In this document: in pieces, positions 3,890 to 59,844 of the stretch
How positions within the stretch are numbered: the first letter of the stretch is position 1
Layout: every line of letters begins with the position of its first letter
NCBI GenBank assembly: GCA_011170325.1
Contig: DUEX01000001.1
Coordinates: forward strand, 373-64,372
Source: Dehalococcoidia bacterium
GTDB taxonomy: Bacteria > Chloroflexota > Dehalococcoidia > GIF9 > UBA5629
Reading direction: 5' to 3'
Length of the DNA stretch: 64,000 nucleotides
Position numbers and translations under genes: made by a program
Notes under the pieces: generated by a model
Seen by the model: the letters and a program-made list of their open reading frames with translations, nothing else
The model's database searches: none
What the model was told of the DNA's origin: nothing

Positions 3890-5002
3890 ATGCTTTATCA
3901 GCGTCTGGTAGCCAAATTTGGCACCAATCTACTTACGGGTGGTACTGACCATCTTGACCCTGAGATTATGGCAAGCCTAGTGGAGCAAGTGGCTCAGCTC
4001 CACAATCAGAGACACGAAGTAATTATCGTGTCTTCTGGAGCAGTTGCCGCCGGAAGACAGAAGTTAGGGCTGACTAAGGAACGTAAAGATATCCCGTTTA
4101 AGCAAGTGCTTGCCTCAGTAGGGCAAAATCAGCTTATGCATGCCTATGAGCGGCTTTTCAGCCAGCACAATATAACTGTAGCTCAGGCACTCCTGACTAA
4201 ATCTGACCTTAGTGACCGCGCTGGCTACCTGAATGCACGAAATACTCTATTAGCTTTAATTGAGTTAGGTGCGGTTTGTATCGTTAATGAAAATGATGTG
4301 GTTGCCACAGATGAGATCGGTGAGGTTAAATTCGGAGATAATGATAATCTCTCAGCGATGGTGGCTAATCTGGTGGATGCTGACCTTTTGATATTGCTCA
4401 CTGATATCGATGGTTTGTACACTGCTGACCCACAGCACGACTCCGATGCTAAGCTTATCCCTAAAGTAGAAAAAATAGATGCTGAGATCGAGCGTTTAGC
4501 CAGCAAGCCCTCCACTCCTCACGGAGTTGGTGGCATGGCAACCAAGATTGAGGCTGCCCAACTAGCGACCTCCTCCGGGGTAACTGTGGTCATTGCCAAC
4601 GGACAAAAACCTGATATCCTGAGGCAAGTTGTGGCTGGTGAGAGTTCTGGTACTCTATTCTTGCCCCGAAGTAGCAAATTGGAAAGTAAGAAACGCTGGA
4701 TGCTCAGTGGACTTGCCTCTAAAGGTAGATTAGTAATCGATGGTGGGGCTGTTTTGGCTCTCAGGAAGCAAAATAAGAGCCTGCTTCCAGCCGGAGTTGT
4801 CAGCGTGGAAGGGGAATTCCAGCGCGGCGATGTAGTAGACATCTTCGACACGGAGGGTGGCCATATCGGCTACGGTATACCTAACTATAATTCCAAGGAT
4901 GCCACTACTATCAAAGGAGCCCATTCTGAAGCAATATCAAGCATTCTCGGCTATGAGTACGGTGATGAGGTGATTCACCGAAATAACATGGTGCTGATGT
5001 AA
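3890..5002 (+). CDS. proB: Glutamate 5-kinase with C-terminal PUA domain
   Basis: 370 aa with amino-acid kinase fold motifs (VIIVSSGAVAAG, GVGGMATKIEAA) and a PUA-like C-terminus. Sits directly upstream of proA. Confidence 0.9.
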   Translation: MLYQRLVAKFGTNLLTGGTDHLDPEIMASLVEQVAQLHNQRHEVIIVSSGAVAAGRQKLGLTKERKDIPFKQVLASVGQNQLMHAYERLFSQHNITVAQALLTKSDLSDRAGYLNARNTLLALIELGAVCIVNENDVVATDEIGEVKFGDNDNLSAMVANLVDADLLILLTDIDGLYTADPQHDSDAKLIPKVEKIDAEIERLASKPSTPHGVGGMATKIEAAQLATSSGVTVVIANGQKPDILRQVVAGESSGTLFLPRSSKLESKKRWMLSGLASKGRLVIDGGAVLALRKQNKSLLPAGVVSVEGEFQRGDVVDIFDTEGGHIGYGIPNYNSKDATTIKGAHSEAISSILGYEYGDEVIHRNNMVLM

Positions 5003-5048: not shown

Positions 5049-6323
5049 ATGCCATCTGCTGTAACCGAACTTGAAGAAAAAGGCAAGGCAGCTAAGGTGG
5101 CTTCGAGAAGTCTCGCCTTTCTTGCCACTGAAGTTAAGAATAAAGCTCTGCTCAATATCGCTGAAGCTATTATGGCCAAGCAAGACGAAACTCTGTCAGC
5201 TAACAGTCTTGACTACAAGGAAGCTAAAGCCTCCGGTATGAGCGCAGCTATGCTTGACCGGCTTATGTTATCTTCAAGCCGCCTAGAAGCGATAGCTCAA
5301 GACGTGAGGATGGTGGCTGCTTTGCCTGACCCTGTAGGTGAGGTGCTGGAAGAGCGTACCCTACCCAACGGTCTGCAGCTTAGCAAGAAACGAGTCCCGC
5401 TTGGGGTTATCGGCGCTATATATGAAAGCCGTCCTAACGTTACCGTGGATATCTCTGTCTTATGTCTTAAGTCGGGCAATGCCGTTGTCCTTCGCGGTGG
5501 CAAGGAAGCATCGCGCTCCAACTTAGCTCTAGCCAAGGTGGTTCAAGAAGCTGCTTACCAGGCTGGAGTACCTCAGGGAGCAGTGCAGTTCATTGAGTCG
5601 ACAGATAGAGCTCTGGTCGATCGCATGCTTGAGATGAGGGGAATAATAGACCTTATGATCCCCCGGGGTGGCGCTGGTCTGATTAAGCTTATTGCTGAAA
5701 ATGCCACCATGCCTGTGGTCACCGGTGGAGTTGGTGTCTGTCATACCTATGAGGATAAAAGCGCTGACTTAGACAAGGCAGCGGCTATCGCCTATAACGC
5801 TAAAGTCCAGCGACCAACAGTGTGTAATGCTCTGGACACTCTCCTAGTCCACGCTGAAGTTGCCCAGCGTTATTTGCCTTTAATTGCCCAAGAATGGGGA
5901 GGGGCCAAGGTGGAAATGCATTGTGATGAGCGTACCTTGGCTATTCTCAAACCGATTCCTTCTCTAAAGCTTGTCCCGGCGGAAAATGAAGATTGGGGCA
6001 AGGAATTCTTGGCACTAATTGCAGCAATTAAGGTGGTTGACTCTTTAGATGAGGCGTTGGAACATATTGAGCGCTATGGCTCTGGGCACTCTGAAGCTAT
6101 AATTACTGAGGATAACTCAGCAGCTATGCGTTTTCTCAATGAGGTAGATGCTGCCTGTGTCTATGCTAATGCCAGCACTCGTTTTACCGATGGTGCTCAG
6201 TTTGGCTTGGGAGCCGAGATAGGCATAAGCACGCAAAAGTTTCATGCTCGTGGTCCGATGGCACTCAGGGAGCTGACCAGCTACAAGTGGATTATCATCG
6301 GCACCGGTCAGGTTCGCCCTTAG
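5049..6323 (+). CDS. proA: Gamma-glutamyl phosphate reductase
   Basis: 424-aa aldehyde dehydrogenase-like protein with the conserved catalytic Cys region (VCNALDTLLVH). Forms an operon pair with proB. Confidence 0.9.
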   Translation: MPSAVTELEEKGKAAKVASRSLAFLATEVKNKALLNIAEAIMAKQDETLSANSLDYKEAKASGMSAAMLDRLMLSSSRLEAIAQDVRMVAALPDPVGEVLEERTLPNGLQLSKKRVPLGVIGAIYESRPNVTVDISVLCLKSGNAVVLRGGKEASRSNLALAKVVQEAAYQAGVPQGAVQFIESTDRALVDRMLEMRGIIDLMIPRGGAGLIKLIAENATMPVVTGGVGVCHTYEDKSADLDKAAAIAYNAKVQRPTVCNALDTLLVHAEVAQRYLPLIAQEWGGAKVEMHCDERTLAILKPIPSLKLVPAENEDWGKEFLALIAAIKVVDSLDEALEHIERYGSGHSEAIITEDNSAAMRFLNEVDAACVYANASTRFTDGAQFGLGAEIGISTQKFHARGPMALRELTSYKWIIIGTGQVRP

Positions 6324-7045: not shown

Positions 7046-7498
7046 CAGAAGTCCTTGCCTTGTCTCCTTATCATCACAGTATAGCATTGACTTGGCTGGC
7101 TTAACAACGCTTAAATCGGATGATACTGCAACATCTTGATCAGTCGAGGCTGAAAATAGAGGAGAGACCTCACAGCATCCCAGGATGACTCCAAAGTAAG
7201 CTAATCTTTGGGTTAAGAAGGTCTCTCAACTGAAGAGCACAACACAGAGACGAAGATGCTGAAGCGGATCTCTTATGGTTTGAAAAATGTAGAAGCTTGC
7301 TGAAGGAAGATGCTCCTGGGGTTTGTACCATCCCGTAGCTATTTGCACACAATTTGACAAAGAGCCCCTAGTCTTGATAAGCTAGGCTGGTTTGCAATAA
7401 AGTTACAGTATATAAACTAAGGCTGTAGAATTTGCTTTTCCATTTGATTCAATTCCTTTTCCTAAATAAGGCTCTATTTTAAGGGAGGTTGTATTCTT

Positions 7499-8437
7499 AT
7501 GAACAGACTTAAGCCAACTTGTTATCTGGCTTGTGCCATCTTGCTCCTAATGATATTCGGCGGGTTGATAACCCAGCCAATTGCCTTGGCAGTATCAGAG
7601 GGAATCACTGAGTCATCTTCGCCGCCACCAGGGCAAGAATCAACACCAGCCGAAGAGGTTGAGATCAGTTGCAAATATCCGGTACTACGTAACCCATCTG
7701 GCACCTATTTCGTCTGGGATGTCGAATTACGCTATAAAGGTGGCGAGCAACCGCATTACTTTGACCTTCGCCTCAATGCGCCAGCTGGTTTTGATACCGC
7801 AATTAGACAAGTCACAGGGGAGGAGAGGGAAATAGCGAGAATTGCCCTTGACCCGAAGAGGGAATACACGGAGATGGTTAGAGTTTTTGCTTCCCCATTT
7901 GTTTGGTCAGCAGTAGAGCCAGGAGAGTATGTTATAACTATGGAAGCTGTGGAATCCAGCCTAGGAGAGTTGAAGAATAGCATTGAGCTTACGGCCATAA
8001 TCACCCCCAAGCCTGACCTTGCTTTGGAGACAACTAGTGGCCGGCTCAATGTTGAGGCTATTGCTGGTAAGGATAACTTTTCTTCGATTATTATCACCAA
8101 TATTGGGTCAGCAGAACTCGAGAAAATTACCTTCTTCTCAGAGACAAAAGATAGACCCCCGGGCTGGATTGTAACCTTCAGTCCGGAGAAGATAGATTCC
8201 CTGCCACTAGGTAGTAAGCGAGAAGTCGAAGTTAACATAAAGCCACCGCAGAAGACCATATCTGGCGACTATATGGTCACCATAGAAGCTGAGCCCGAAT
8301 CTAAACTAGCTTGGGATATGTTGGAGATCAGGGTAACTGTGCTGACGCCTACAATTTGGGGCTGGGTAGGTGTTGGTATTGTAATTGTCGTTATAGTCGG
8401 ATTGGTGGTGATGTTCATGCGCTTGGGCAGACGGTGA
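7499..8437 (+). CDS. COG1470-like membrane-anchored beta-sandwich protein (signal/TM at N-terminus, single C-terminal TM)
   Basis: 312 aa with an N-terminal hydrophobic segment, a repetitive beta-rich ectodomain and a C-terminal TM helix (IWGWVGVGIVIVVIVGLVVMF). Lies immediately upstream of the ABC-2 transporter genes, as is typical for this family. Confidence 0.45.
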   Translation: MNRLKPTCYLACAILLLMIFGGLITQPIALAVSEGITESSSPPPGQESTPAEEVEISCKYPVLRNPSGTYFVWDVELRYKGGEQPHYFDLRLNAPAGFDTAIRQVTGEEREIARIALDPKREYTEMVRVFASPFVWSAVEPGEYVITMEAVESSLGELKNSIELTAIITPKPDLALETTSGRLNVEAIAGKDNFSSIIITNIGSAELEKITFFSETKDRPPGWIVTFSPEKIDSLPLGSKREVEVNIKPPQKTISGDYMVTIEAEPESKLAWDMLEIRVTVLTPTIWGWVGVGIVIVVIVGLVVMFMRLGRR

Positions 8438-34147: not shown

Positions 34148-34222
34148 GCGGGAGTAACTCAGTGGTAGAGTTCCTGCCTTCCAAGCAGGCTGTCGCGGGT
34201 TCGAGCCCCGTCTCCCGCTCCA
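34148..34222 (+). tRNA. tRNA-Gly (anticodon TCC)
   Basis: Cloverleaf reconstructed by hand: acceptor stem GCGGGAG/CTCCCGC, D arm ACTC-AGTGGTA-GAGT, anticodon stem CCTGC/GCAGG with loop CTTCCAA, T arm GCGGG-TTCGAGC-CCCGT, and an encoded CCA. Confidence 0.85.
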
Positions 34223-35668: not shown

Positions 35669-36174
35669 TGTGATTCCTGCTTTGTATTCTCAATTGTCCC
35701 GCCTGATTCTCCTGCCGGTAATGTCTCTGTTCTCCTACAAGAAGTCTTAGACACAATTGCCAGCAACAGCTAACCATTCTATACCGTCACCAGTTCCCTT
35801 TCAATCTTCAAGTTATGACCTCACAGAATCAGCCAACAGCCAGAGTATCGTTCTCAAGGCAACAGAATAGACAGTCCTGGACGTATGCTTATCACTAACA
35901 TATTTGCTTGGTGCGTATGTGCCAAGTAAAGATAGAGTGACTGGTCTCCCATTCCACCCTATCTGGGTCAGCTTTGGATTGCTTGGGGTAAGTTTTTGCC
36001 TGTTGACAAAATAGGAAAAAGCTTCTATCATATAATTGCCATCGACCATAAGGCGGTGAGTTTTTAGTAAAATAAAAATATCCGCTTGGATCAGCACTGA
36101 CCGAGACGGAAAATAGTGGCAATCTATCTTAGGCCTTTTCAGCAGTGCTGAGAAGGTCTAATTTTTGGGCAACT

Positions 36175-37134
36175 ATGTATAACGCTATAACTGACATTCC
36201 GGGAATCAAAGTAGGACATTACAGTGATAGGGAAGCAATCACTGGCTGCACCGTGATTCTGTGCGAGACGGGGGCAGTAGCTGGAGTTGATGTCAGGGGC
36301 TCAGCACCAGGAACCAGAGAAACCGACCTGCTCCGACCAATGAACTTAGTGGAAAAGGTCCAGGCTATCCTTCTCAGCGGCGGCAGCGCCTTTGGACTGG
36401 ATGCCGCCAGTGGGGTAATGCGTTACCTCGAGGAGCGAGGCTTCGGTCACGAAACCTCAGTAGCTAAGGTGCCTATCGTTCCTGCAGCCATACTCTTCGA
36501 TTTAAGGATAGGTAGCTCCAAAATCAGACCCGGGGCCGAAGAAGGCTATAAGGCTTGCCTAGCTGCGAGTGACAGAGAGGTAGCCGAAGGTTGTGTTGGC
36601 GTTGGCACCGGAGCTACAGTAGGCAAGGCTCTGGGAATAGACAGCGCAACTAAAAGCGGTCTGGGCACAGCTAGCCAGGAAATAGGCGATGGTATCATTG
36701 TTGCTGCCCTGGTTGTGGTTAATGCCTTCGGAGATGTTATTGACCCCGGAACGGGAAGAATTTTAGCTGGTCCTCGTCATCACCAGGATAAGGAGTTCCT
36801 CAGTACCGCTGAACTATTAAAACAAGGTTATAACAGGCGAAATTCCCTGCCTGATAATACCACTCTGGGTGTAGTAGCCACCAACGCTGGCTTGAGTAAG
36901 GAGCAGGTGAACAAACTGGCACAGATGGCGCAAGACGGCGTAGCTCGGGCTATCAACCCCAGCCACACTATGTACGATGGCGATACCATGTTTGCTCTCT
37001 CCTTAGGTGAAAAGATGAGCGATGTCACCATTCTCGGTTCAGTGGCTGCTGAGATAGTAGCTACTGTTATAGTCAGGGCAATTCTTCAGGCCGAGACAGT
37101 TGCTGGTGTACCAGCAGTTAAAGATATGGTTTAG
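36175..37134 (+). CDS. DmpA/BapA-type (peptidase S58) aminopeptidase
   Basis: ITDIPGIKVGHYSD and VDVRGSAPGTRETDLL are N-terminal S58 family hallmarks, with an Ntn-hydrolase-like GGSAFGLDAA. Start taken at an internal Met. Confidence 0.65.
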   Translation: MYNAITDIPGIKVGHYSDREAITGCTVILCETGAVAGVDVRGSAPGTRETDLLRPMNLVEKVQAILLSGGSAFGLDAASGVMRYLEERGFGHETSVAKVPIVPAAILFDLRIGSSKIRPGAEEGYKACLAASDREVAEGCVGVGTGATVGKALGIDSATKSGLGTASQEIGDGIIVAALVVVNAFGDVIDPGTGRILAGPRHHQDKEFLSTAELLKQGYNRRNSLPDNTTLGVVATNAGLSKEQVNKLAQMAQDGVARAINPSHTMYDGDTMFALSLGEKMSDVTILGSVAAEIVATVIVRAILQAETVAGVPAVKDMV

Positions 37135-51338: not shown

Positions 51339-51893
51339 TTATTCTTCTAGCTTAAATTCCCATTGGCAACAGACTTCATTCTTGCTTTTTCTGGGCGGTG
51401 ATTTCAGGCACTTTACCTCTATGCCAGGACTAAAAAAGGAGGCATAGTCTTTAAAAACCTTAGTGTCTACCAGATTACAAATGCTCTCTTCTCTCCCTTC
51501 GCCTTCCTCTTCTAGAGCTATTAGTGTAGGACAGTGAGTGATCGTAAGCATAGCCTGATTCCTATTCTCAACCTCCAGTTTATATTCAAGATTCCAAAAC
51601 CATGGGCTGAGTTGAAGAGTCTTCACGAGAGCAGCAACATCGTTTCCGTCGATTTTCATCATCTTCGTGAGACGCTTTGATTCATACTTAACTACACTTT
51701 CCCAAGCCAATAAGTCACAGGCCAGAGCTTCCTCATTACTACTCCTCTCCTTAACTGAAAGATACCAAAATCCGTCTATTGCCAGGTAAAACCTAGCATA
51801 TAGCCTTAGCAGCTCTATAAGCGTATCTTTAGAAAAGCTCTCAAGGCGCATTTCCGGAAGAAATTCTCCGTTGTAATCCCTCAGTATTTTCAC
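51339..51893 (-). CDS. Hypothetical cytosolic protein (Cys-containing, 184 aa)
   Basis: ORF of plausible coding character. No family recognised by eye. Confidence 0.4.
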   Translation of the reverse strand: MKILRDYNGEFLPEMRLESFSKDTLIELLRLYARFYLAIDGFWYLSVKERSSNEEALACDLLAWESVVKYESKRLTKMMKIDGNDVAALVKTLQLSPWFWNLEYKLEVENRNQAMLTITHCPTLIALEEEGEGREESICNLVDTKVFKDYASFFSPGIEVKCLKSPPRKSKNEVCCQWEFKLEE

Positions 51894-52149
51894 AATAGCC
51901 TCCTTATAGTATTTTGCTCAAACGTTTCCCACCGTGAACACTTTTCTTCTTATGGTCATGACACCATTAAATGCTAATTAGTGCTTCAACAGCATAGTCT
52001 CTTAGGTTATGACCTTGATTGCTAAGGTTAGCTTGGTTTGTCGCGTAGTTTATAGCTTTTTGCCGAAGTCGTCAAAAACTTGACAAATCCCGAATAGATA
52101 CTTAAAATATACTGCAATAGAATATAGCAAAGGCTGAGAACAGAACTAG

Positions 52150-52412
52150 TACGCCTTAAAGCGAAGCTACAGAGAGTCAGAGTAGGTGAAAGCTGATGCT
52201 AGCGCAAAGGCTGAATGGATCTGGGAGCCGCAAACCGAAAGGTTAGTGGAAGCAAGCACGAGTAGGTTTTGACGCAAGGGTAGCGTTATCAAAACTCAGG
52301 GTATCGCTTTAGTAAATTACAGCCGTACCTGAAAGAGATGGTCGATAAAGGCCAACAAGGGTGGCACCGCGAAGCTTAAGCCTCTCGCCCCTTAGGCGAG
52401 AGGCTTAAATTT
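52150..52412 (+). promoter_or_regulatory. T-box riboswitch leader (probable tRNA-Trp responsive) with intrinsic terminator, upstream of trpE
   Basis: Conserved T-box AAGGGTGGCACCGCG at 52357..52371. Followed by the terminator hairpin AAGCCTCTCGCC-CCTTA-GGCGAGAGGCTT (52378..52406) and then AAATTTAT. Upstream AGAGAG and AGTAGG Stem-I-like elements, and a TGGA candidate specifier. Confidence 0.55.
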
Positions 52413-52426
52413 ATAAAGGATCAAAT

Positions 52427-53923
52427 ATGTACTTGCCGGACTTAAATACTTTCTGCCATAAAACAGAAACTGGCAATTTAGTGCCAGTCTTCCGTGAGCT
52501 ATCAGCAGATTTAGAAACCCCGGTATCAGTGTTCCTTAAACTAAAGAATGATACTCCCTGTTTCTTGCTAGAGAGTGTAGAGAGGGGCGAACAATTAGGA
52601 CGTTACTCCTTTATTGGTACCAATCCCTTCCTAATCTTTCAAGCTCAGGGTACAAAAGGAAGCATAAATGACCATGGTAAAATAAGCAAGGCTTACTTCG
52701 ACCCACCACCATCGGATAACAATCCCCTGAGGGAAATCCAAAGGCTACTTTCTCAATACAAAGTAGCAGCTGTCCCTGAATTGCCCCGTTTCTTCGGAGG
52801 TGCCGTTGGTTACCTATCTTATGACATGGTACGCTTTTTTGAAAAACTACCGCCATCACCTAAAGACCAGCTTAAGCTTCCTGATTGCGTTTTCCTCTTC
52901 ACCGATACTTTGGTCATCTTCGACCACGTCGCTAATAAGATGAAAATTGTATCTAATGCCATGGCCAGCGACAACGACTCAGTTGCTTATCAAGAAGCGG
53001 TAGATAAAATCGAAGATATAATCTCTATCCTTAGCCAGCCACTAACTACAACAGAACCAGCCCGCACATCCACCCCAGACGATTCTGAGACCCCCCAATT
53101 AAGTTCCAATTTTACATCACAAGAGTTCAATGAAGCGGTAAAAGTCGCCAAAGAGCATATTCTTAATGGAGATGCCTTCCAGATTGTCCTATCTCAACGT
53201 TTGTGCCGTCAGACCACGGCTCAACCATTCTCCATCTATAGGGCATTGCGCATGCTTAATCCCTCGCCATATATGTTTTACCTCGACTTTAGCAACTTCC
53301 AACTGATTGGGTCATCTCCCGAGATGCTAGTCAAGCTTGAAGGCAACCAAGCTGAAACCCGCCCTATTGCTGGCACTAGACCAAGAGGGAATAGCGAAGA
53401 CAAAGATGAACTGATTATCACCGAGTTGCTTGCCGACCCTAAAGAGAGGGCCGAACATGTAATGCTGGTCGACCTAGGCAGAAATGATCTGGGGAGAGTT
53501 TGCCGCTTTGGCACCGTCGAAACGCCCCTCTTCATGACTACGGAGAAATACTCTCATGTTATCCATATAGTCTCCTCAGTAACCGGCGAATTGCAGGAAA
53601 AGCAGAATGCATTCGACCTGCTTCATGCTTGCTTCCCAGCAGGCACAGTCACTGGAGCTCCGAAAATCAGAGCTATGGAAATTATTAATGAGCTGGAAGG
53701 AGTAAGCCGAGGGCCTTATGCTGGCGCAGTAGGCTATTTCAGCTTCACAGGTAACATGGATACCTGCATAACTATTCGCACAATTGTCCAGATTGGTAAT
53801 ACTGTTTACCTTCAAGGTGGCGCTGGTATCGTTGCTGACTCAGACCCAGAACGAGAATACTTGGAAACCCTCAAAAAGATGGAGGTTCTACAAAAGGCAG
53901 TTAATTTAGCTGAAACTAGGTGA
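52427..53923 (+). CDS. trpE: Anthranilate synthase component I
   Basis: 498 aa with chorismate-binding enzyme motifs LLESVERGEQLGRYSFIG and GAVGYFSFTGNMDTCITIR. Confidence 0.9.
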   Translation: MYLPDLNTFCHKTETGNLVPVFRELSADLETPVSVFLKLKNDTPCFLLESVERGEQLGRYSFIGTNPFLIFQAQGTKGSINDHGKISKAYFDPPPSDNNPLREIQRLLSQYKVAAVPELPRFFGGAVGYLSYDMVRFFEKLPPSPKDQLKLPDCVFLFTDTLVIFDHVANKMKIVSNAMASDNDSVAYQEAVDKIEDIISILSQPLTTTEPARTSTPDDSETPQLSSNFTSQEFNEAVKVAKEHILNGDAFQIVLSQRLCRQTTAQPFSIYRALRMLNPSPYMFYLDFSNFQLIGSSPEMLVKLEGNQAETRPIAGTRPRGNSEDKDELIITELLADPKERAEHVMLVDLGRNDLGRVCRFGTVETPLFMTTEKYSHVIHIVSSVTGELQEKQNAFDLLHACFPAGTVTGAPKIRAMEIINELEGVSRGPYAGAVGYFSFTGNMDTCITIRTIVQIGNTVYLQGGAGIVADSDPEREYLETLKKMEVLQKAVNLAETR

Positions 53924-53935
53924 GGATTTAAAACT

Positions 53936-54946
53936 GTGATTAGAGAAGCGATTGCTAAATTGATAGAAAAGAATGATCTTGCCGAAAGCGAAGCTGAAGC
54001 GGTTATGCACCAGATCATGCACGGTGAGGCTACCCCCAGTCAAATAGGTGCTTTCCTTACTGCACTCCGAATGAAAGGAGAGACCGTAGATGAAATTACC
54101 GGCTGCGCCCGGGCTATGCGGGCTAACGCTATAAGTGTAACCACCAATCAAAAATTACTGGTAGATACCTGTGGCACCGGAGGTGATAGCACAGGCACAT
54201 TCAATATTTCCACTATTGTCAGCCTGGTAGTAGCTGGAACTAAATTAGCTGTAGCTAAACATGGCAACCGCTCCGTATCCAGCCGCTGTGGCAGTGCCGA
54301 CCTCCTTGAAACTCTGGGCGTCAAAATCGACCTTGGTCCTGAAGAGGTAGCAAGATGTATAGACGAGGTGGGCATCGGCTTTCTCTTCGCCCCACGTTTC
54401 CATCCAGCTATGAAATATGCCTCCACACCTCGCCGTGAAATGGGCATTAGAACTATCTTTAACCTCCTAGGGCCATTAATCAACCCAGCTTCAGCCTCAG
54501 TTCAACTGATGGGTATCTATGCCCCCGAGCTTACTGAAACCTTAGCACAGGTTTTAGATTCACTAGGCACCCATCAAGCTATGGTAGTCCATGGAGGCGG
54601 TCTTGACGAGCTTTCTACCACAGCTACCAACAGAATAAGCCAGCTCACGAATGGCCAAGTAACTACTTACTACCTTGATCCTAGTGAATTAGGGTTACCA
54701 CCGACCCGCTTGGAAGAATTGAAAGGCGGGGCACCCCGGGAAAACGCTAAAATTGCACTGAATCTGCTCCGAGGCGAGCCGGGTGCAAAAAGAGATATTG
54801 TGCTACTAAACGCTGCCGCTGCCCTTGTTACCGCGGGAAAAGCCAAGGATTTCAAGGCAGGCGTGGCTATAGCTACTGAATCCATTGACGGTGGCCAAGC
54901 ACTGAACAAGCTAGAGGAGCTTATCCATTTAAGCAACGCTCTTTGA
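53936..54946 (+). CDS. trpD: Anthranilate phosphoribosyltransferase
   Basis: LVDTCGTGGDSTGTFNIST motif. 336 aa. Confidence 0.9.
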   Translation: MIREAIAKLIEKNDLAESEAEAVMHQIMHGEATPSQIGAFLTALRMKGETVDEITGCARAMRANAISVTTNQKLLVDTCGTGGDSTGTFNISTIVSLVVAGTKLAVAKHGNRSVSSRCGSADLLETLGVKIDLGPEEVARCIDEVGIGFLFAPRFHPAMKYASTPRREMGIRTIFNLLGPLINPASASVQLMGIYAPELTETLAQVLDSLGTHQAMVVHGGGLDELSTTATNRISQLTNGQVTTYYLDPSELGLPPTRLEELKGGAPRENAKIALNLLRGEPGAKRDIVLLNAAAALVTAGKAKDFKAGVAIATESIDGGQALNKLEELIHLSNAL

Positions 54947-54955
54947 GATTTTGAT

Positions 54956-55777
54956 ATGACTAATAACAAAATTCTTGACAATATAATAGCTACTACTTAT
55001 CGAAGCCTTGCCCAAAGAAAACGCCAAAAACCTTTGAACGAGCTTAAGCAGGAAATAAGCCAAAAAAGCAAGCCTAAAGATTTGGAAGATTGCTTGCGGG
55101 GAGAAGAAATTAAACTTATTGCTGAAATCAAAAGGGCATCGCCAAGCAAAGGGGCGCTACATCCTGACCTTAATATTATTAAGTCAGCCCAAAGCTATGC
55201 TCAAGGCGGAGCTGCAGCCATCTCAGTGCTCACTGAACCAACCTTCTTCTTAGGAAGTTTTGCTGACTTAGGCATAGTTCGAAAAGCCACAAATTTGCCT
55301 ATCTTATGTAAAGATTTCATCCTTGATACCTACCAAATTTACGAAGCTCGTGCTTACGGAGCCGATGCCATATTAATTATCGCTGCCATACTCCAGCAGC
55401 AAGAGCTAAAATCCTTAGCCACGCTGGCTCATGACCTTGACATGTCAGCTCTAATAGAAGTGCACGATGAAACGGATATAGAGAAGGCGCTGGATGCTGA
55501 AGCCTGCCTTATCGGCATAAACAACCGCAATTTGGCCGACTTCAGCGTTAATCTGGAAACAACTTTAAGGCTACGACCTCTAATCCCAGAACACGCGACT
55601 GTAGTAAGTGAAAGTGGCATCCAATCTGCTGCTGACATAGCTAGGCTTAAGGCAGCCGGAATCAATGCCATTCTAGTTGGCGAAGCTCTAGTTACCAGCC
55701 CTGACCCAGTAGCTAAAATCAAACAACTGCTGGGCTTAATCCCCGTAAGGCAAGGGAATTTCAATGGTAAGAGTTAA
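54956..55777 (+). CDS. trpC: Indole-3-glycerol phosphate synthase
   Basis: LIAEIKRASPSKG and ILCKDFI motifs. ALIEVHDE. Confidence 0.85.
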   Translation: MTNNKILDNIIATTYRSLAQRKRQKPLNELKQEISQKSKPKDLEDCLRGEEIKLIAEIKRASPSKGALHPDLNIIKSAQSYAQGGAAAISVLTEPTFFLGSFADLGIVRKATNLPILCKDFILDTYQIYEARAYGADAILIIAAILQQQELKSLATLAHDLDMSALIEVHDETDIEKALDAEACLIGINNRNLADFSVNLETTLRLRPLIPEHATVVSESGIQSAADIARLKAAGINAILVGEALVTSPDPVAKIKQLLGLIPVRQGNFNGKS

Positions 55778-56393
55778 GGTCTGCGGTATAACCAATATTC
55801 AAGATGCCCTATCAGCCATAGACTACGGTGCTGATGCCTTGGGCTTTGTCTTTGCTCCAAGCCCGAGGCAGTTAACCCCAGAACAAGTTCAAGACATAGT
55901 TAGCCAATTGCCTCCTCATACTTGTAAAGTTGGCGTCTTTGTGGATTTCGAGTTAGCAACCGTAAATGATATAAAATCAAGATGCCATTTAGACATAGTT
56001 CAACTACATGGCTCCGAGAGTCCTGAGTATTGCCAATCTCTTTTACCCAATGTAATAAAATCTTTCCAGGTTAGAGATGAAACAATCTTAGAGCTCCTAC
56101 CCACCTATAGGGTAAAGGCTTACCTACTGGATAGCTACCACACTAAACTAAAAGGTGGCACAGGACACAGTTTCGATTGGTCAATCGCTAAAAAAGCTAA
56201 GGAATACGGACCGATTATCTTATCTGGCGGGCTTAACCCGGATAATATACGCCAAGCTATTGCCGCTGTCCAGCCATTTGCCGTAGATGTCTCCAGCGGT
56301 GTAGAGGCCACTCCAGGGAAAAAAGACCAAAATAAACTTCGCAATTTTTTGAAAGCAGCCAAACAAGTACAGGTAGAGAAGGCAAAGTTTTGA
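55764..56393 (+). CDS. trpF: Phosphoribosylanthranilate isomerase
   Basis: VKVCGIT...DALGFVF with the C-terminal LSGGLNPDN. Overlaps trpC by 14 nt. Confidence 0.85.
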
Positions 56394-57580
56394 AGTTACC
56401 TGATAACAAAGGCTATTTTGGAGAATACGGTGGCAAATTTGTACCTGAGGTACTAGTGGCACCTTTAGCCGAGTTAGAATCAGCTTATGCTGAAGCCTAC
56501 GCCGATACTCGTTTCTGGGATGAATTCAATGCCCTTTGCCACAACTGGATTGGACGCCCAACACCACTCTATTTCGCTCGCCAACTCTCAGCCAAGTTAG
56601 GAGGAGCCACCATTTTGCTCAAACGGGAAGATCTAGCTCATACTGGTGCTCATAAAATCAACAATACTTTAGGGCAAGGGCTGCTGGCAAAGCGGATGGG
56701 TAAGAAAAGGATTGTTGCCGAAACCGGGGCAGGGCAACACGGTGTAGCCACAGCCACAACATGCGCATTGCTTAATATCGAATGTGTTGTATACATGGGA
56801 GAAGAGGACATTCAGCGCCAGTCACTTAATGTCCTGCGCATGAAGTTACTGGGGGCTGAGGTACGGCCAGTATCTTCGGGTAGCCGAACTCTTAAGGATG
56901 CTATCAATGAAGCTATCAGAGACTGGATAACCAACGTATCTAACACTTACTACCTCCTTGGCTCGGTGGTCGGTCCTCATCCCTACCCCATGATGGTTCG
57001 TAATTTCCAGTCAATAATTGGCAAAGAAACAAGGGAGCAAGTATTAGCCGAATATGGGAATTTGCCTAATTATATAGTAGCTTGTGTTGGTGGTGGTAGT
57101 AATTCAATAGGCATCTTTTACCCATTTGTAGACGATAGCCCTATCAAATTGATTGGGGTCGAGGCTGCTGGAAAAGGATTAAGTAGTGGAAAACATGCTT
57201 CTCCTTTAATGGCTGGTAGAACCGGCGTTCTCCACGGAGCCAGGTCTTACTTAATGCAAGACGAGCACGGGCAGGTACTCACTACTTACAGTATCGCCCC
57301 TGGTTTAGATTATCCTGGCGTAGGACCGGAACACTGCTACTATAAAGACACTGGTCGAGTTAATTACACAAGTGTTACCGATAACCAAGCATTAGACGGC
57401 TTTCACCTCCTCTCCACCACCGAGGGCATTATCCCAGCACTAGAGCCAGCTCACGCTATCTACTATGCCGCTGAGCTAGCCAAGGATTTGACCAAAGACC
57501 AGATTATAATCATCAACCTTTCTGGTAGAGGAGACAAAGATTTGGATATAGTCTCTAAAGCTACGGGGGTAAGGCTATGA
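56390..57580 (+). CDS. trpB: Tryptophan synthase beta chain (TrpB1 type)
   Basis: [19 protein letters not shown]-lysine motif and GGGSNSIG. Confidence 0.9.
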
Positions 57581-58356
57581 GCCAACTTGCTTCCGTTTTC
57601 ACTACCCCTGAACATAAAGCGTTAATTGCTTATGTTACTGTGGGTTATCCCAGTATTGAAGCTACCTTAGAAGTGGTACCATTACTAGCCTCCTTGGGCT
57701 GTGATGTAGTAGAGCTAGGTATTCCCTTTTCTGACCCATTGGCTGACGGAGTTACTATTCAGGAGGCAAGCTACCGAGCTCTGCGCCAAGGTGTTTCACC
57801 TTTGTCATGCCTAGACACAGCCGCTAGACTGCGAGAAAAAATAAGCATACCGTTGATATTTATGACTTACTATAATCCGGTTTTCAGTTTTGGAATAGAC
57901 AATTTTTGCCAGGCTTGCCTTAACTCAGGTATCGATGGGCTTATAATTCCTGATCTGCCTCCTGAGGAATCCAATGAACTAGAAACTTCCACCCAACAGC
58001 GCCAGCTTGACCTGATTTATTTGCTAGCGCCTAACAGTCCCGAGGAACGCATCAGAGTAGTAGCCCAAAAATCCCGTGGCTTTATCTACTTGGTTTCCCT
58101 CACCGGCACTACCGGTGCCCGAGAAAGGCTACCGCCGGATTTAGAAAGCTTTGTAGCTCGGGTGAGACAAAAAACCAGCCAACCCCTTTGTGTCGGCTTT
58201 GGCATCTCCACACCAGAGCAGGCACAGCGGGTAGCTAAAATAGCCGATGGCACAATTGTCGGTAGCCGTCTTATCCAGCTATTAGATGAACGACCACTTA
58301 ACAAGCTCGCCGAATTTATCAAAAGTTTACGAAAGGCTTTGGATAATCACCATTAG
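57577..58356 (+). CDS. trpA: Tryptophan synthase alpha chain
   Basis: [11 protein letters not shown] and [13 protein letters not shown] motifs. Confidence 0.9.
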
Positions 58357-58386
58357 CAGATAAAAAACTAAAAAGGAGGCAACAAT

Positions 58387-58446
58387 ATGTCAACAATGTC
58401 ATGGAGCTGGCCCCAAGAGGGCCAAGAACAGTTTCAATCACATTAA
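58387..58446 (+). CDS. Candidate Trp-rich leader peptide (19 codons, MSTMSWSWPQEGQEQFQSH)
   Basis: ATG 7 nt after AAAAGGAGG. Two Trp codons (TGG AGC TGG) within 19 codons. Ends 33 nt before the trpB2 start. Confidence 0.35.
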   Translation: MSTMSWSWPQEGQEQFQSH

Positions 58447-58479
58447 CAAAACTTTTAGCACTTAAAAAGGAGGATAAAA

Positions 58480-59844
58480 ATGGAAAGAACAATGTACTTT
58501 CTTGACCAAAAGGATATGCCAACTCACTGGTATAATATCCAGGCTGATTTGCCTGAGCCATTGCCACCTCTGCTTCATCCTGGTACCAAGGAGCCCACAC
58601 GTCTCCCCCCCCCGCTCTTCCCCGAGGCCTGTAATGAGCAGGAGTTCAGCAAAGAGCGCTGGATTGAGATCCCCGAAGAGGTACAAGAGATTTACCGCAC
58701 GTGGAGACCCACAGTATTACATCGGGCGCGTCGGCTGGAGAAAGCCTTAGACACACCAGCCAAGATCTTCTTTAAATATGAAGGGACAAGCCAGGCTGGT
58801 AGTCATAAACCCAACACTGCCGTAGCTCAAGCCTATTATGCAAAAAAACAGGGGGCTAAGCGCATGACCACAGAGACCGGTGCTGGACAGTGGGGAAGTG
58901 CCCTCTCCATGGGCTGCATGTTCTTTGGTCTCGAATTAAAGGTCTATATGGTTAAAGTAAGCTACAACCAGAAACCTTATCGCCGTATCTTGATGGAGAC
59001 CTGGGGAGCCAACTGCGTGCCCAGCCCTAGCACAGATACCGAAATCGGACGCAAAATTCTAGCTGAAAACCCCGACTCACCGGGCAGCCTGGGGATTGCC
59101 ATCAGCGAGGCGATAGAAGATGCTCTAAATCGTGATGATACTTTCTATTCTATAGGCAGCGTAGTAAATCATGTCCTACTACACCAGACTATTGTAGGCG
59201 AGGAGACCCGGAAGCAAATGGAGATGGCGGATGCCTACCCTGATATTATCGTCGGCTGTATCGGCGGCGGCTCTAACTTCGCCGGGCAATTCCTGCCCTG
59301 GATCAGGGATAAAATTAGCGGGAAAAAACCAGACATGCGCATCATCTGCGTTGAGCCCATGGCTGCCCCCAGCTTGACCAAGGGTCCCTATACTTGGGAC
59401 TATGGGGATATAGCTGGCCTTGCCCCTATAGTCAAGATGTATACCCTAGGGCATACCTTTATTCCATCCCCAATTCACGCTGGAGGACTGCGCTACCATG
59501 GGATGGCACCCATAATATGCCACCTCTATAAGTTAGGATTAGTCGAGGCTAGGGCTGAGTATCAGATCCCGGTCTTCGAGGCAGGCGTAAAGTTTGCTCG
59601 GACTGAGGGCATTATCACGGCCCCGGAACCATGCCATGACCTCAAGGTAACTATTGATGAAGCCCTTAAATGTAGGGAAGCAGGCGAATCAAAGACCATC
59701 CTGATAGCTCATAGTGGACACGGGCATTTCGACCTGGCTGCCTATGACGAATATCTCTCAGGAAAGCTTAAGGATTATGAGTATCCTGAAGAGAAGGTAA
59801 GGGAAGCTTTAGCTGAATTACCAAAAGTACCGTCGGGGATATAA
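58480..59844 (+). CDS. Tryptophan synthase beta chain-like, TrpB2 type
   Basis: 454 aa with an extended N-terminus ([18 protein letters not shown]), the PLP-lysine motif SHKPNTA, and GGGSNFAG. Confidence 0.8.

Follow-up and report, generated by a model that had tools for sequence, protein, structure and literature searches.

Leader open reading frames (ORFs) rich in codons of the regulated amino acid are a textbook attenuation device, and almost all examples known to us act through a terminator or through sequestration or occlusion of a Shine-Dalgarno (SD) sequence. Here we describe a short Trp-codon leader ORF between trpA and trpB2 in a 64,000-nucleotide stretch of a Dehalococcoidia bacterium genome (assembly GCA_011170325.1, contig DUEX01000001.1, forward-strand positions 373 to 64,372), which is called the window below. 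In the Bacillus subtilis anti-TRAP (rtpA/yczA) operon, the leader ORF rtpLP contains three consecutive Trp codons and stops at the rtpA SD, where the terminating ribosome blocks the SD. TnaC, the tryptophan-sensing arrest peptide of the tna operon, is 24 residues long, has the spacing W12-D16-P24 and works via Rho on a long spacer region. The Salmonella mgtA leader combines a riboswitch-type sensor, in this case a Mg2+ riboswitch, with a codon-based ORF, the Pro-codon leader ORF mgtL. According to a statement within one article, expression of the anti-TRAP protein involves both a T-box and ribosome stalling that depends on tRNA (PMC10327191, which cites Chen & Yanofsky 2003, 2004). The trp leaders of actinobacteria are ribosome-mediated attenuators and are grouped with trpL (PMC1262725). 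TrpB2 is considered a beta chain that scavenges indole (PMC2700814, PMC1854888). In Dehalococcoides, Wels et al. 2008 described T-boxes before trpE and before a "trpB-like" gene, with no mention of an ORF between T-box and gene (PMC2494555). No description of the leader ORF was found in full-text literature searches, and the family is apparently undescribed.

A Trp-codon leader ORF between trpA and trpB2

The leader ORF comprises 19 codons followed by TAA at positions 58387-58446 of the plus strand (ATG TCA ACA ATG TCA TGG AGC TGG CCC CAA GAG GGC CAA GAA CAG TTT CAA TCA CAT TAA) and encodes the peptide MSTMSWSWPQEGQEQFQSH. Its stop is separated by 33 nt (58447-58479) from the ATG of trpB2 at 58480. 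A trpE-D-C-F-B-A operon spans 52427-58356, and the leader ORF and trpB2 close its 3' end; the features of the locus are listed in Table 1. The sequence-only reading of this DNA had reported the ORF, its peptide and ribosome binding site, the gap to trpB2 and the binding site of trpB2 itself, and all of these agreed with the sequence when checked, as did the rarity of Trp in the coding background (1.0% of codons in the long ORFs of the window). However, that reading had missed the T-box that heads the operon. Judged by comparison with related sequences, the leader ORF is one of a conserved family of Trp-codon leader ORFs that are translated and carry an RNA hairpin.

Table 1. Positions of the leader ORF, its RNA elements and the neighboring genes in the window
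Feature	Position	Strand	Evidence or remark
Trp-specific T-box at the operon head	52127-52395	+	Rfam RF00230, 103.3 bits (gathering score 93)
trpA, 5' neighbor of the leader ORF	57577-58356	+	TIGR00262, 278 bits
Covariance-model match (SD, core ORF and hairpin)	58371-58427	+	model R1, 52.3 bits, E 3.7e-13
SD of the leader ORF, AAGGAGG	58373-58379	+	GGAGG at 58375-58379, 7 nt spacer to ATG
Core of the leader ORF (codons 1-9)	W6 58402-58404, W8 58408-58410, Pro CCC 58411-58413	+	
Conserved hairpin	58408-58424	+	6 bp, -11.2 kcal/mol, no U-tract; present in the minimum free energy fold
SD of trpB2, AAAGGAGG	58466-58473	+	A-rich segment, mostly unpaired by predicted folding
trpB2 (TrpB-like pyridoxal phosphate enzyme), 3' of the leader ORF	58480-59844	+	NF009057, 697 bits; TIGR01415, 626 bits

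Comparison with described leaders

In functional terms, the closest system is the B. subtilis anti-TRAP operon with its T-box and rtpLP. As in that operon, the transcript carries a Trp-specific T-box and then a short Trp-codon ORF just before the regulated gene, an arrangement in which tRNA-Trp would be sensed at both transcription and translation. Unlike in rtpLP, the leader stop is not at the SD, the Trp codons are in a W-x-W arrangement, and a near-invariant Pro and a conserved hairpin are present; trpB2 and transporter-like genes take the place of rtpA as regulated genes, the host belongs to the Dehalococcoidia, and in the window the T-box lies six genes upstream. The leader resembles E. 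coli trpL in being a short ORF with an SD and two Trp codons, which are located in the 5' arm of a hairpin (compare segment 1:2). In contrast to trpL, it has no 2:3 or 3:4 alternative pairing, no U-tract terminator and no Rfam match, its site is not at the 5' end of the operon, and its peptide core is conserved as amino acids.

The conserved Trp and Pro at the presumed stall site resemble TnaC. A Pro-stop or Pro-Pro-stop is found in a few members only (L053, L059, L078, L085 and L149; loci of the comparison are given by L numbers), and the window ORF continues for ten more codons after Pro9. Unlike TnaC, the core is 9 residues long, and a spacer of 33 nt is followed by a strong SD. Since trpB2 is biosynthetic, induction by free Trp would be illogical here. 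As in erm and cat leaders, a stalled ribosome would open a hairpin that begins inside the short leader ORF, whereas the downstream SD is in no predicted alternative pairing. The mgtA leader likewise pairs a riboswitch with a leader ORF that works through its codons; however, mgtL lies inside the riboswitch and responds to another signal, while the present ORF lies past the T-box terminator and both devices would sense Trp.

The sequence-only reading had likened the ORF to Trp-sensing leader peptides of the trpL or TnaC type that would gate trpB2. The view of the ORF as a conserved leader that acts in cis and is linked to tryptophan control of trpB2 is well supported, but neither type fits: terminator or alternative hairpins and a match to the Rfam Trp_leader are absent, and so are a Rho-length spacer and, usually, a Pro-stop. 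Because the stop at the SD, the terminator, the spacer with Rho and the SD sequestration all fail as shared features, we class the element as a leader rich in codons of the regulated amino acid that stands outside the rtpLP, trpL, TnaC and erm families.

Conservation of the leader ORF among relatives

For a set not biased by the motif, the 80 best TrpB2 relatives were collected from contigs with one genome per species, and the region upstream of each trpB2 was read. All compared sequences were metagenome-assembled genomes (MAGs) or metagenomes, and the nearest TrpB2 relatives were Dehalococcoidia MAGs. Over the 7.4-kb trpB2 region that was compared, the window is identical to contig DAOUDO010000238.1 (assembly GCA_034431065.1). 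At 19 of the 80 loci, an ATG-initiated ORF of 9-38 codons with an SD and the core M-x-T-M/I-S-W-x-W-P was found, starting 75-108 nt before trpB2, and the SD was at equal spacing in all 19. One locus (L078) has a shorter copy with a two-codon deletion (MFTMYWP). The gene directly upstream of trpB2 was trpA in just 4 of the 80. The sequence-only reading had named conservation of the peptide in relatives as a test, and the nine N-terminal codons indeed recur upstream of trpB2 in many Dehalococcoidia.

A MAFFT alignment of all members left the 3' arms of the hairpin out of register, and a covariance model was used instead. This model (R1) was made from 18 members and built on the subset with a 7-bp stem and a 3-nt loop. 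It matched 22 of the 80 loci at E<1e-3, every time just upstream of trpB2, with no other strong match in the 675 kb searched; over about 1.35 Mb searched, the matches were confined to trpB2 operons. The match in Table 1 is the sole one on the plus strand of the 64 kb. One further match in the window, on the reverse strand, is weak (E 0.47) and corresponds to the palindromic hairpin itself. Neither the motif count nor model R1 revealed further copies of the leader ORF elsewhere in the window.

Metagenome contigs were also scanned with the exact pattern ATGNNNAYNATGTCNTGGNNNTGGCCC, which gave at least 120 loci. Among the matches listed, 54 have a trpB2 start 83-106 nt past the ORF ATG, one 5'-truncated match excepted, and about 60 further family members were added in this way; the remaining loci among them are truncated contigs or scattered chance matches. 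Since this set was retrieved by the pattern, conservation of the pattern positions in it is by construction, and all statements on codon conservation rest on the 19 TrpB2-retrieved members. Altogether, the family is represented by at least about 80 distinct sequences. Two loci of other lineages, L110 and L115, have the intact order of trpA, leader ORF and trpB2 as in the window. About 35 of the matches listed (within L084-L200, e.g., L086, L100 and L106) were false positives that fall in the interior of a long conserved protein containing MRTMSWVWPYQQITGK.AMPAGNRDVSICPADTF, with no T-box motif and no trpB2 nearby.

By composition within the window alone, the leader ORF is not significant. The probability of at least two Trp in 18 codons is 0.014, so that about 0.4 such cases are expected among the 28 short ORFs with SD and ATG in the window, and 0.56 occurrences of TGGNNNTGGCCC are expected. 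It is the conservation in relatives that marks the leader ORF as real and rules out a chance ORF. An example of the chance background is the other SD-led short ORF with two Trp codons in the window, at 51736 on the minus strand (MRKLWPVTYWLGKV), which lies within a 184-aa ORF (51339-51893).

Coding signature

Entropies were calculated for codon positions 1/2/3. The ATG is invariant and codon 2 is variable. Codon 3 encodes Thr in 16 of the 19 members with all four Thr codons in use (0.30/0.63/1.93), codon 4 encodes Met or Ile (0/0/1.19), and codon 5 encodes Ser in 14 (0.59/0.77/1.43). This third-position periodicity over codons 2-5 indicates that the frame is translated and that selection acts on the peptide as well as on the Trp codons. 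TGG is found at codon 6 in 15/19 and at codon 8 in 18/19, while codon 7 varies freely at each of its positions. Codon 9 encodes Pro in 17/19, and every one of these 17 is CCC, although CCC accounts for just 21% of the Pro codons in the window; the fixed CCC points to an added constraint at the RNA level.

Past Pro9 the ORF is unconstrained. Its length was 9-31 codons in 45 representatives, and the stop may follow Pro immediately, lie within trpB2 or fall at any point in between. Constraint is seen in the distance from ATG to ATG (75-108 nt), the seven codons from the ATG to the hairpin, and the hairpin itself.

A hairpin that overlaps the ORF

In the window, the 5' arm UGGCCC (58408-58413) consists of the W8 and P9 codons and pairs with the 3' arm GGGCCA (58419-58424) across the loop CAAGA. 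Family-wide, UGGCCC(C) pairs with (G)GGGCCR over a loop of 3-5 nt. A search anchored at the W8 codon covered 77 distinct members and recovered a stem of 5 bp or more in 65, most of these stems having 6-7 bp; in most of the other 12 the stem is displaced by one or two bases. Over the family, 97% of the hairpin cells are paired, the pair at the base of the stem alternates between U-A and U-G, and the mean stability is -12.0 kcal/mol. The loop length varies and the 3' arm is consequently read in two frames (47 vs 20 members), which argues that this arm is conserved as RNA and not as peptide. The 3' flank is purine-rich throughout the family; in the window the hairpin is followed by AAGAACAG.

The sequence-only reading held that no terminator hairpin follows the ORF. 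There is indeed no intrinsic terminator, but the conserved hairpin that starts at the second Trp codon had been overlooked. An Rfam search of 58340-58500 at E<=10 returned only noise, the best hit scoring 17.8 bits against a gathering score of 49.9, and Trp_leader (RF00513) gave no match over the same interval even at that threshold. A known RNA family was ruled out on this basis.

T-boxes and trpB2 operons

Alignment to RF00230 gave UGG as the specifier of the T-box at the operon head, in the context GAA-UGG-A. This T-box is located six genes upstream of the leader ORF, and trpE begins 31 nt after it (52395-52427) with no leader ORF between them. In most relatives, a Trp T-box with its terminator is found directly upstream of the leader ORF, as recognized by the T-box core motif and GAATGGA. 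Rfam confirmed the T-box at this place in L006, L018, L023, L108, L143 and L180, and the specifier in L006 is again GAA-UGG-A. By motif, the leader ORF is present in 48 of 64 leaders that run from a T-box to trpB2, a count that includes pattern-biased loci. The absence of a leader ORF after the trpE T-box of the window assigns the element to the trpB2 module and not to Trp T-boxes in general.

At seven loci (L108, L143, L144, L171, L178, L180 and L187), T-box, terminator, leader ORF and hairpin are followed by a gene for a PF04392 ABC substrate-binding lipoprotein. The sequence was read further in L108 and L143, and there trpB2 comes after this gene. L180 carries two copies of the leader (7155-7212 and 8294-8347), one before the binding-protein gene and one before trpB2; the latter was found by model R1 and lies outside the search pattern (MFTISWRWPPWGPR). 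In L153, whose trpB2 operon is likewise behind a Trp T-box, one copy precedes a 199-aa multi-pass membrane protein with no clear Pfam family and a second precedes trpB2, about 750 nt apart. The second copy is preceded by a remnant of the 3' half of a T-box terminator, suggesting duplication of a block made of the T-box end and the leader. The PF04392 lipoprotein and the 199-aa membrane protein are candidate components of tryptophan or indole uptake.

Variant leaders upstream of trpB2

In L002 and L056 (after trpA) and in L007, L063 and L067 (after a T-box), a strong SD is followed by ATG TAG 55-58 nt upstream of trpB2. L024 has SD-ATG-CTC-TAA (M-L-stop) where the leader ORF would sit. The start-stop mini-ORF may be a constitutive variant with a parked ribosome or a decay product of the leader. 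In L005, a decayed leader lies about 68 nt before trpB2, its two Trp codons having turned into stops (ATG TTT GCC TTG CCA TAG CAG TGA CCC); it still scores 22 bits with model R1 (match 3917-3973).

Eight Desulfobacterota loci (L062, L064, L068, L069, L074, L076, L077 and L079) have TGG-(C/T)AG-TGGCYTC...GRRGCCAA 55-70 nt upstream of trpB2. A hairpin is possible there with G-U pairs, there is no in-frame ATG or SD, and at times an in-frame TAG is found. These leaders may be either an RNA-only version of the element or relics of a trpB2 transfer from one phylum to another. Another conserved hairpin, GTCCGYG...GCGGAC followed by GAAATG(G/T)TAA, occurs 30-70 nt upstream of trpB2 in L019, L036, L040, L042, L044, L048, L049 and L080 (Desulfobacterales group), and in L036 it lies inside a 12-codon ORF that ends Lys-Trp-stop.

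Proposed mechanism and alternative explanations

We give a slightly better than even chance to the reading that the leader is translated, acts in cis and responds to charged tRNA-Trp through stalling at UGG6/UGG8, thereby modulating trpB2 alongside the T-box. Ribosomes would load at the strong SD and translate M-S-T-M-S, and UGG6 and UGG8 would then be decoded while the ribosome unwinds the GC hairpin that has UGG8-CCC9 as its 5' arm. If the ribosomal helicase site is assumed to be some 11 nt 3' of the P-site codon, unwinding would begin as UGG6 enters the A site, and the whole 5' arm would be inside the ribosome when UGG8 is in the A site. When Trp-tRNA is scarce, the ribosome would park on the Trp codons and keep the hairpin open, under the same condition in which the operon T-box permits readthrough. 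With ample Trp-tRNA, the ribosome would reach the stop, whose position is unconserved, and the hairpin would re-form. Either the parked ribosome or the open versus closed state of the hairpin would set the output of trpB2, most likely upward. In Dehalococcoidia such ORFs usually lie between a Trp T-box and the indole-salvage gene trpB2, so that they probably add a second check on tryptophan supply, made by the ribosome; the tandem of two sensors would match that of the B. subtilis anti-TRAP operon. Both this precedent and the SD-ATG-TAG relatives suggest that what matters would be a ribosome parked some 55-70 nt before trpB2.

Several observations weigh against this stalling reading. The first group concerns the route from the leader to trpB2, where no output mechanism among those examined fits. 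No intrinsic terminator-like site was found in 58387-58480. In partition-function folding of 45 diverse members, the predicted unpaired probability of the trpB2 SD was 0.62 both free and with a ribosome footprint on UGG8 (Wilcoxon p=0.9); with predicted accessibility unchanged, erm-type release of a sequestered SD by stalling was rejected. The leader stop is 21 nt from the trpB2 SD in the window, and the family median is about 30 nt with a range of -25 to 55. Such distances are too long and too variable for SD occlusion by a terminating ribosome to be general, and an rtpLP-type mechanism was set aside on this ground. A Rho-dependent model was judged unlikely because the spacer from stop to start is short (19-66 nt, family median 41 nt) and is followed by a strong SD. 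When the 3' arm was freed in constrained folding, its predicted partners were diffuse and most frequent 70-80 nt into the trpB2 coding sequence; this signal was attributed to C-rich codons of a conserved Pro-rich motif, and an alternative partner was not accepted. This leaves two coupling candidates, ribosome hand-over and shielding of the 5' region of the mRNA by a parked ribosome.

The second group concerns the leader itself. Sensing tRNA-Trp twice in one leader looks redundant. T3-M4-S5 is conserved as peptide, which a pure hungry-codon sensor does not need, and W6 is replaced by Arg or Cys in 4/19 members, where one Trp codon is left. The covariation of the hairpin amounts to two double changes and is statistically weak because the sequence hardly varies. 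Among relatives with operon-embedded trpB2, L001 (90% TrpB2 identity, trpA-trpB2 arrangement with a 38-nt gap) has no leader ORF, L052 has a degraded copy with no clear hairpin, and L002, L056 and L024 have only the start-stop or M-L-stop ORF. Loss or truncation in such relatives means that the window copy is possibly under relaxed selection.

The conserved residues could also be explained by nascent-chain arrest, in which M-x-T-M-S-W-x-W-P stalls the ribosome at W8-P9, either intrinsically or with indole or free Trp bound. Such a leader would resemble TnaC or the Erm leaders, would sense something other than tRNA charging and would form an AND gate with the T-box. We consider this explanation improbable. 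Thr3, Met/Ile4 and Ser5 are conserved as amino acids despite saturated third positions, although the sampled clade is narrow and peptide conservation may partly reflect shared ancestry. W8-P9 is near-invariant while W6 is dispensable, but the hairpin with its fixed CCC third position also explains the constancy of W8-P9. Some ORFs (MFTMSWYWP, MTTIFWMWP and MCTMSWKWPP) stop just past the motif, which recalls the Pro-stop of TnaC, and the stop position is otherwise irrelevant; on the other hand, a chain of nine residues is short. Arrest would suit the points that a second tRNA-Trp sensor would duplicate the T-box and that in the window the element accompanies the indole-salvage module, whereas the trpE T-box has none. 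However, no data indicate a ligand, and Trp inducing a Trp-forming enzyme makes no sense. A special case, in which the W-x-W-P leader is a new short arrest element with a hairpin that parks the ribosome on a small molecule, with indole as the logical candidate for a module of indole salvage and uptake, seems very unlikely to us; if true, trpB2 would be expressed only with tRNA-Trp uncharged and a salvageable precursor present.

The hairpin could alternatively be the functional part, serving as a determinant of protein binding, processing or stability, with the ORF delivering ribosomes or arising as a by-product and with no Trp sensing at this site. The hairpin is the most constant feature of the family, being 97% paired with CCC fixed. 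The Desulfobacterota trpB2 leaders look hairpin-like (TGG-NAG-TGGCYYC...GRRGCC) and have no in-frame ATG, L068, L077 and L079 being weak model matches, and a start-stop ORF alone is found at the equal position in other relatives. Against an RNA-only role, the ATG and SD are invariant in Dehalococcoidia, and the spacing from ATG to hairpin is exactly seven codons except in L078. The third-position periodicity of codons 2-5 speaks for selection on translating this frame, UGG6 is conserved in 15/19 yet lies outside the hairpin, and no known RNA family matches. An RNA-only role is unlikely in our view. Finally, the family may be real while the window copy is a neutral remnant, carried along when a module of T-box, leader ORF and trpB2 fused behind trpA. 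The trpA-trpB2 relatives closest in TrpB2 would agree with this, as they have no leader (L001), ATG-TAG (L002 and L056), ATG-CTC-TAA (L024) or a degraded copy (L052). The window copy, however, keeps the SD, ATG, T3, M4, S5, W6, W8, CCC9 and the 6-bp hairpin and scores 52 bits, and L110 and L115 have intact copies with trpA upstream; we consider a neutral remnant quite unlikely.

Significance of the leader family

The family comes from an environmentally abundant and largely uncultured class, and it combines a T-box and a Trp-codon ORF with a conserved core and hairpin but no known output device. If the stalling model holds, tandem sensing of tRNA-Trp, known from one Bacillus operon, would extend to another phylum and to another output mechanism. 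The element is compact, at 57 nt, and model R1 can be used as an annotation marker. The family would mark trpB2, the PF04392 substrate-binding protein and the small membrane protein as a co-regulated module for tryptophan or indole salvage.

Other features

The trp operon of the window lacks a trpG. A Pan motif (RF01749, 46 bits) was found at 36037-36113, upstream of an ORF at 36145-37134, and a tRNA gene is located at 34148-34219. In L108, a further T-box (5101-5366) lies upstream of an isoleucyl-tRNA synthetase gene, as in Dehalococcoides (PMC2494555).

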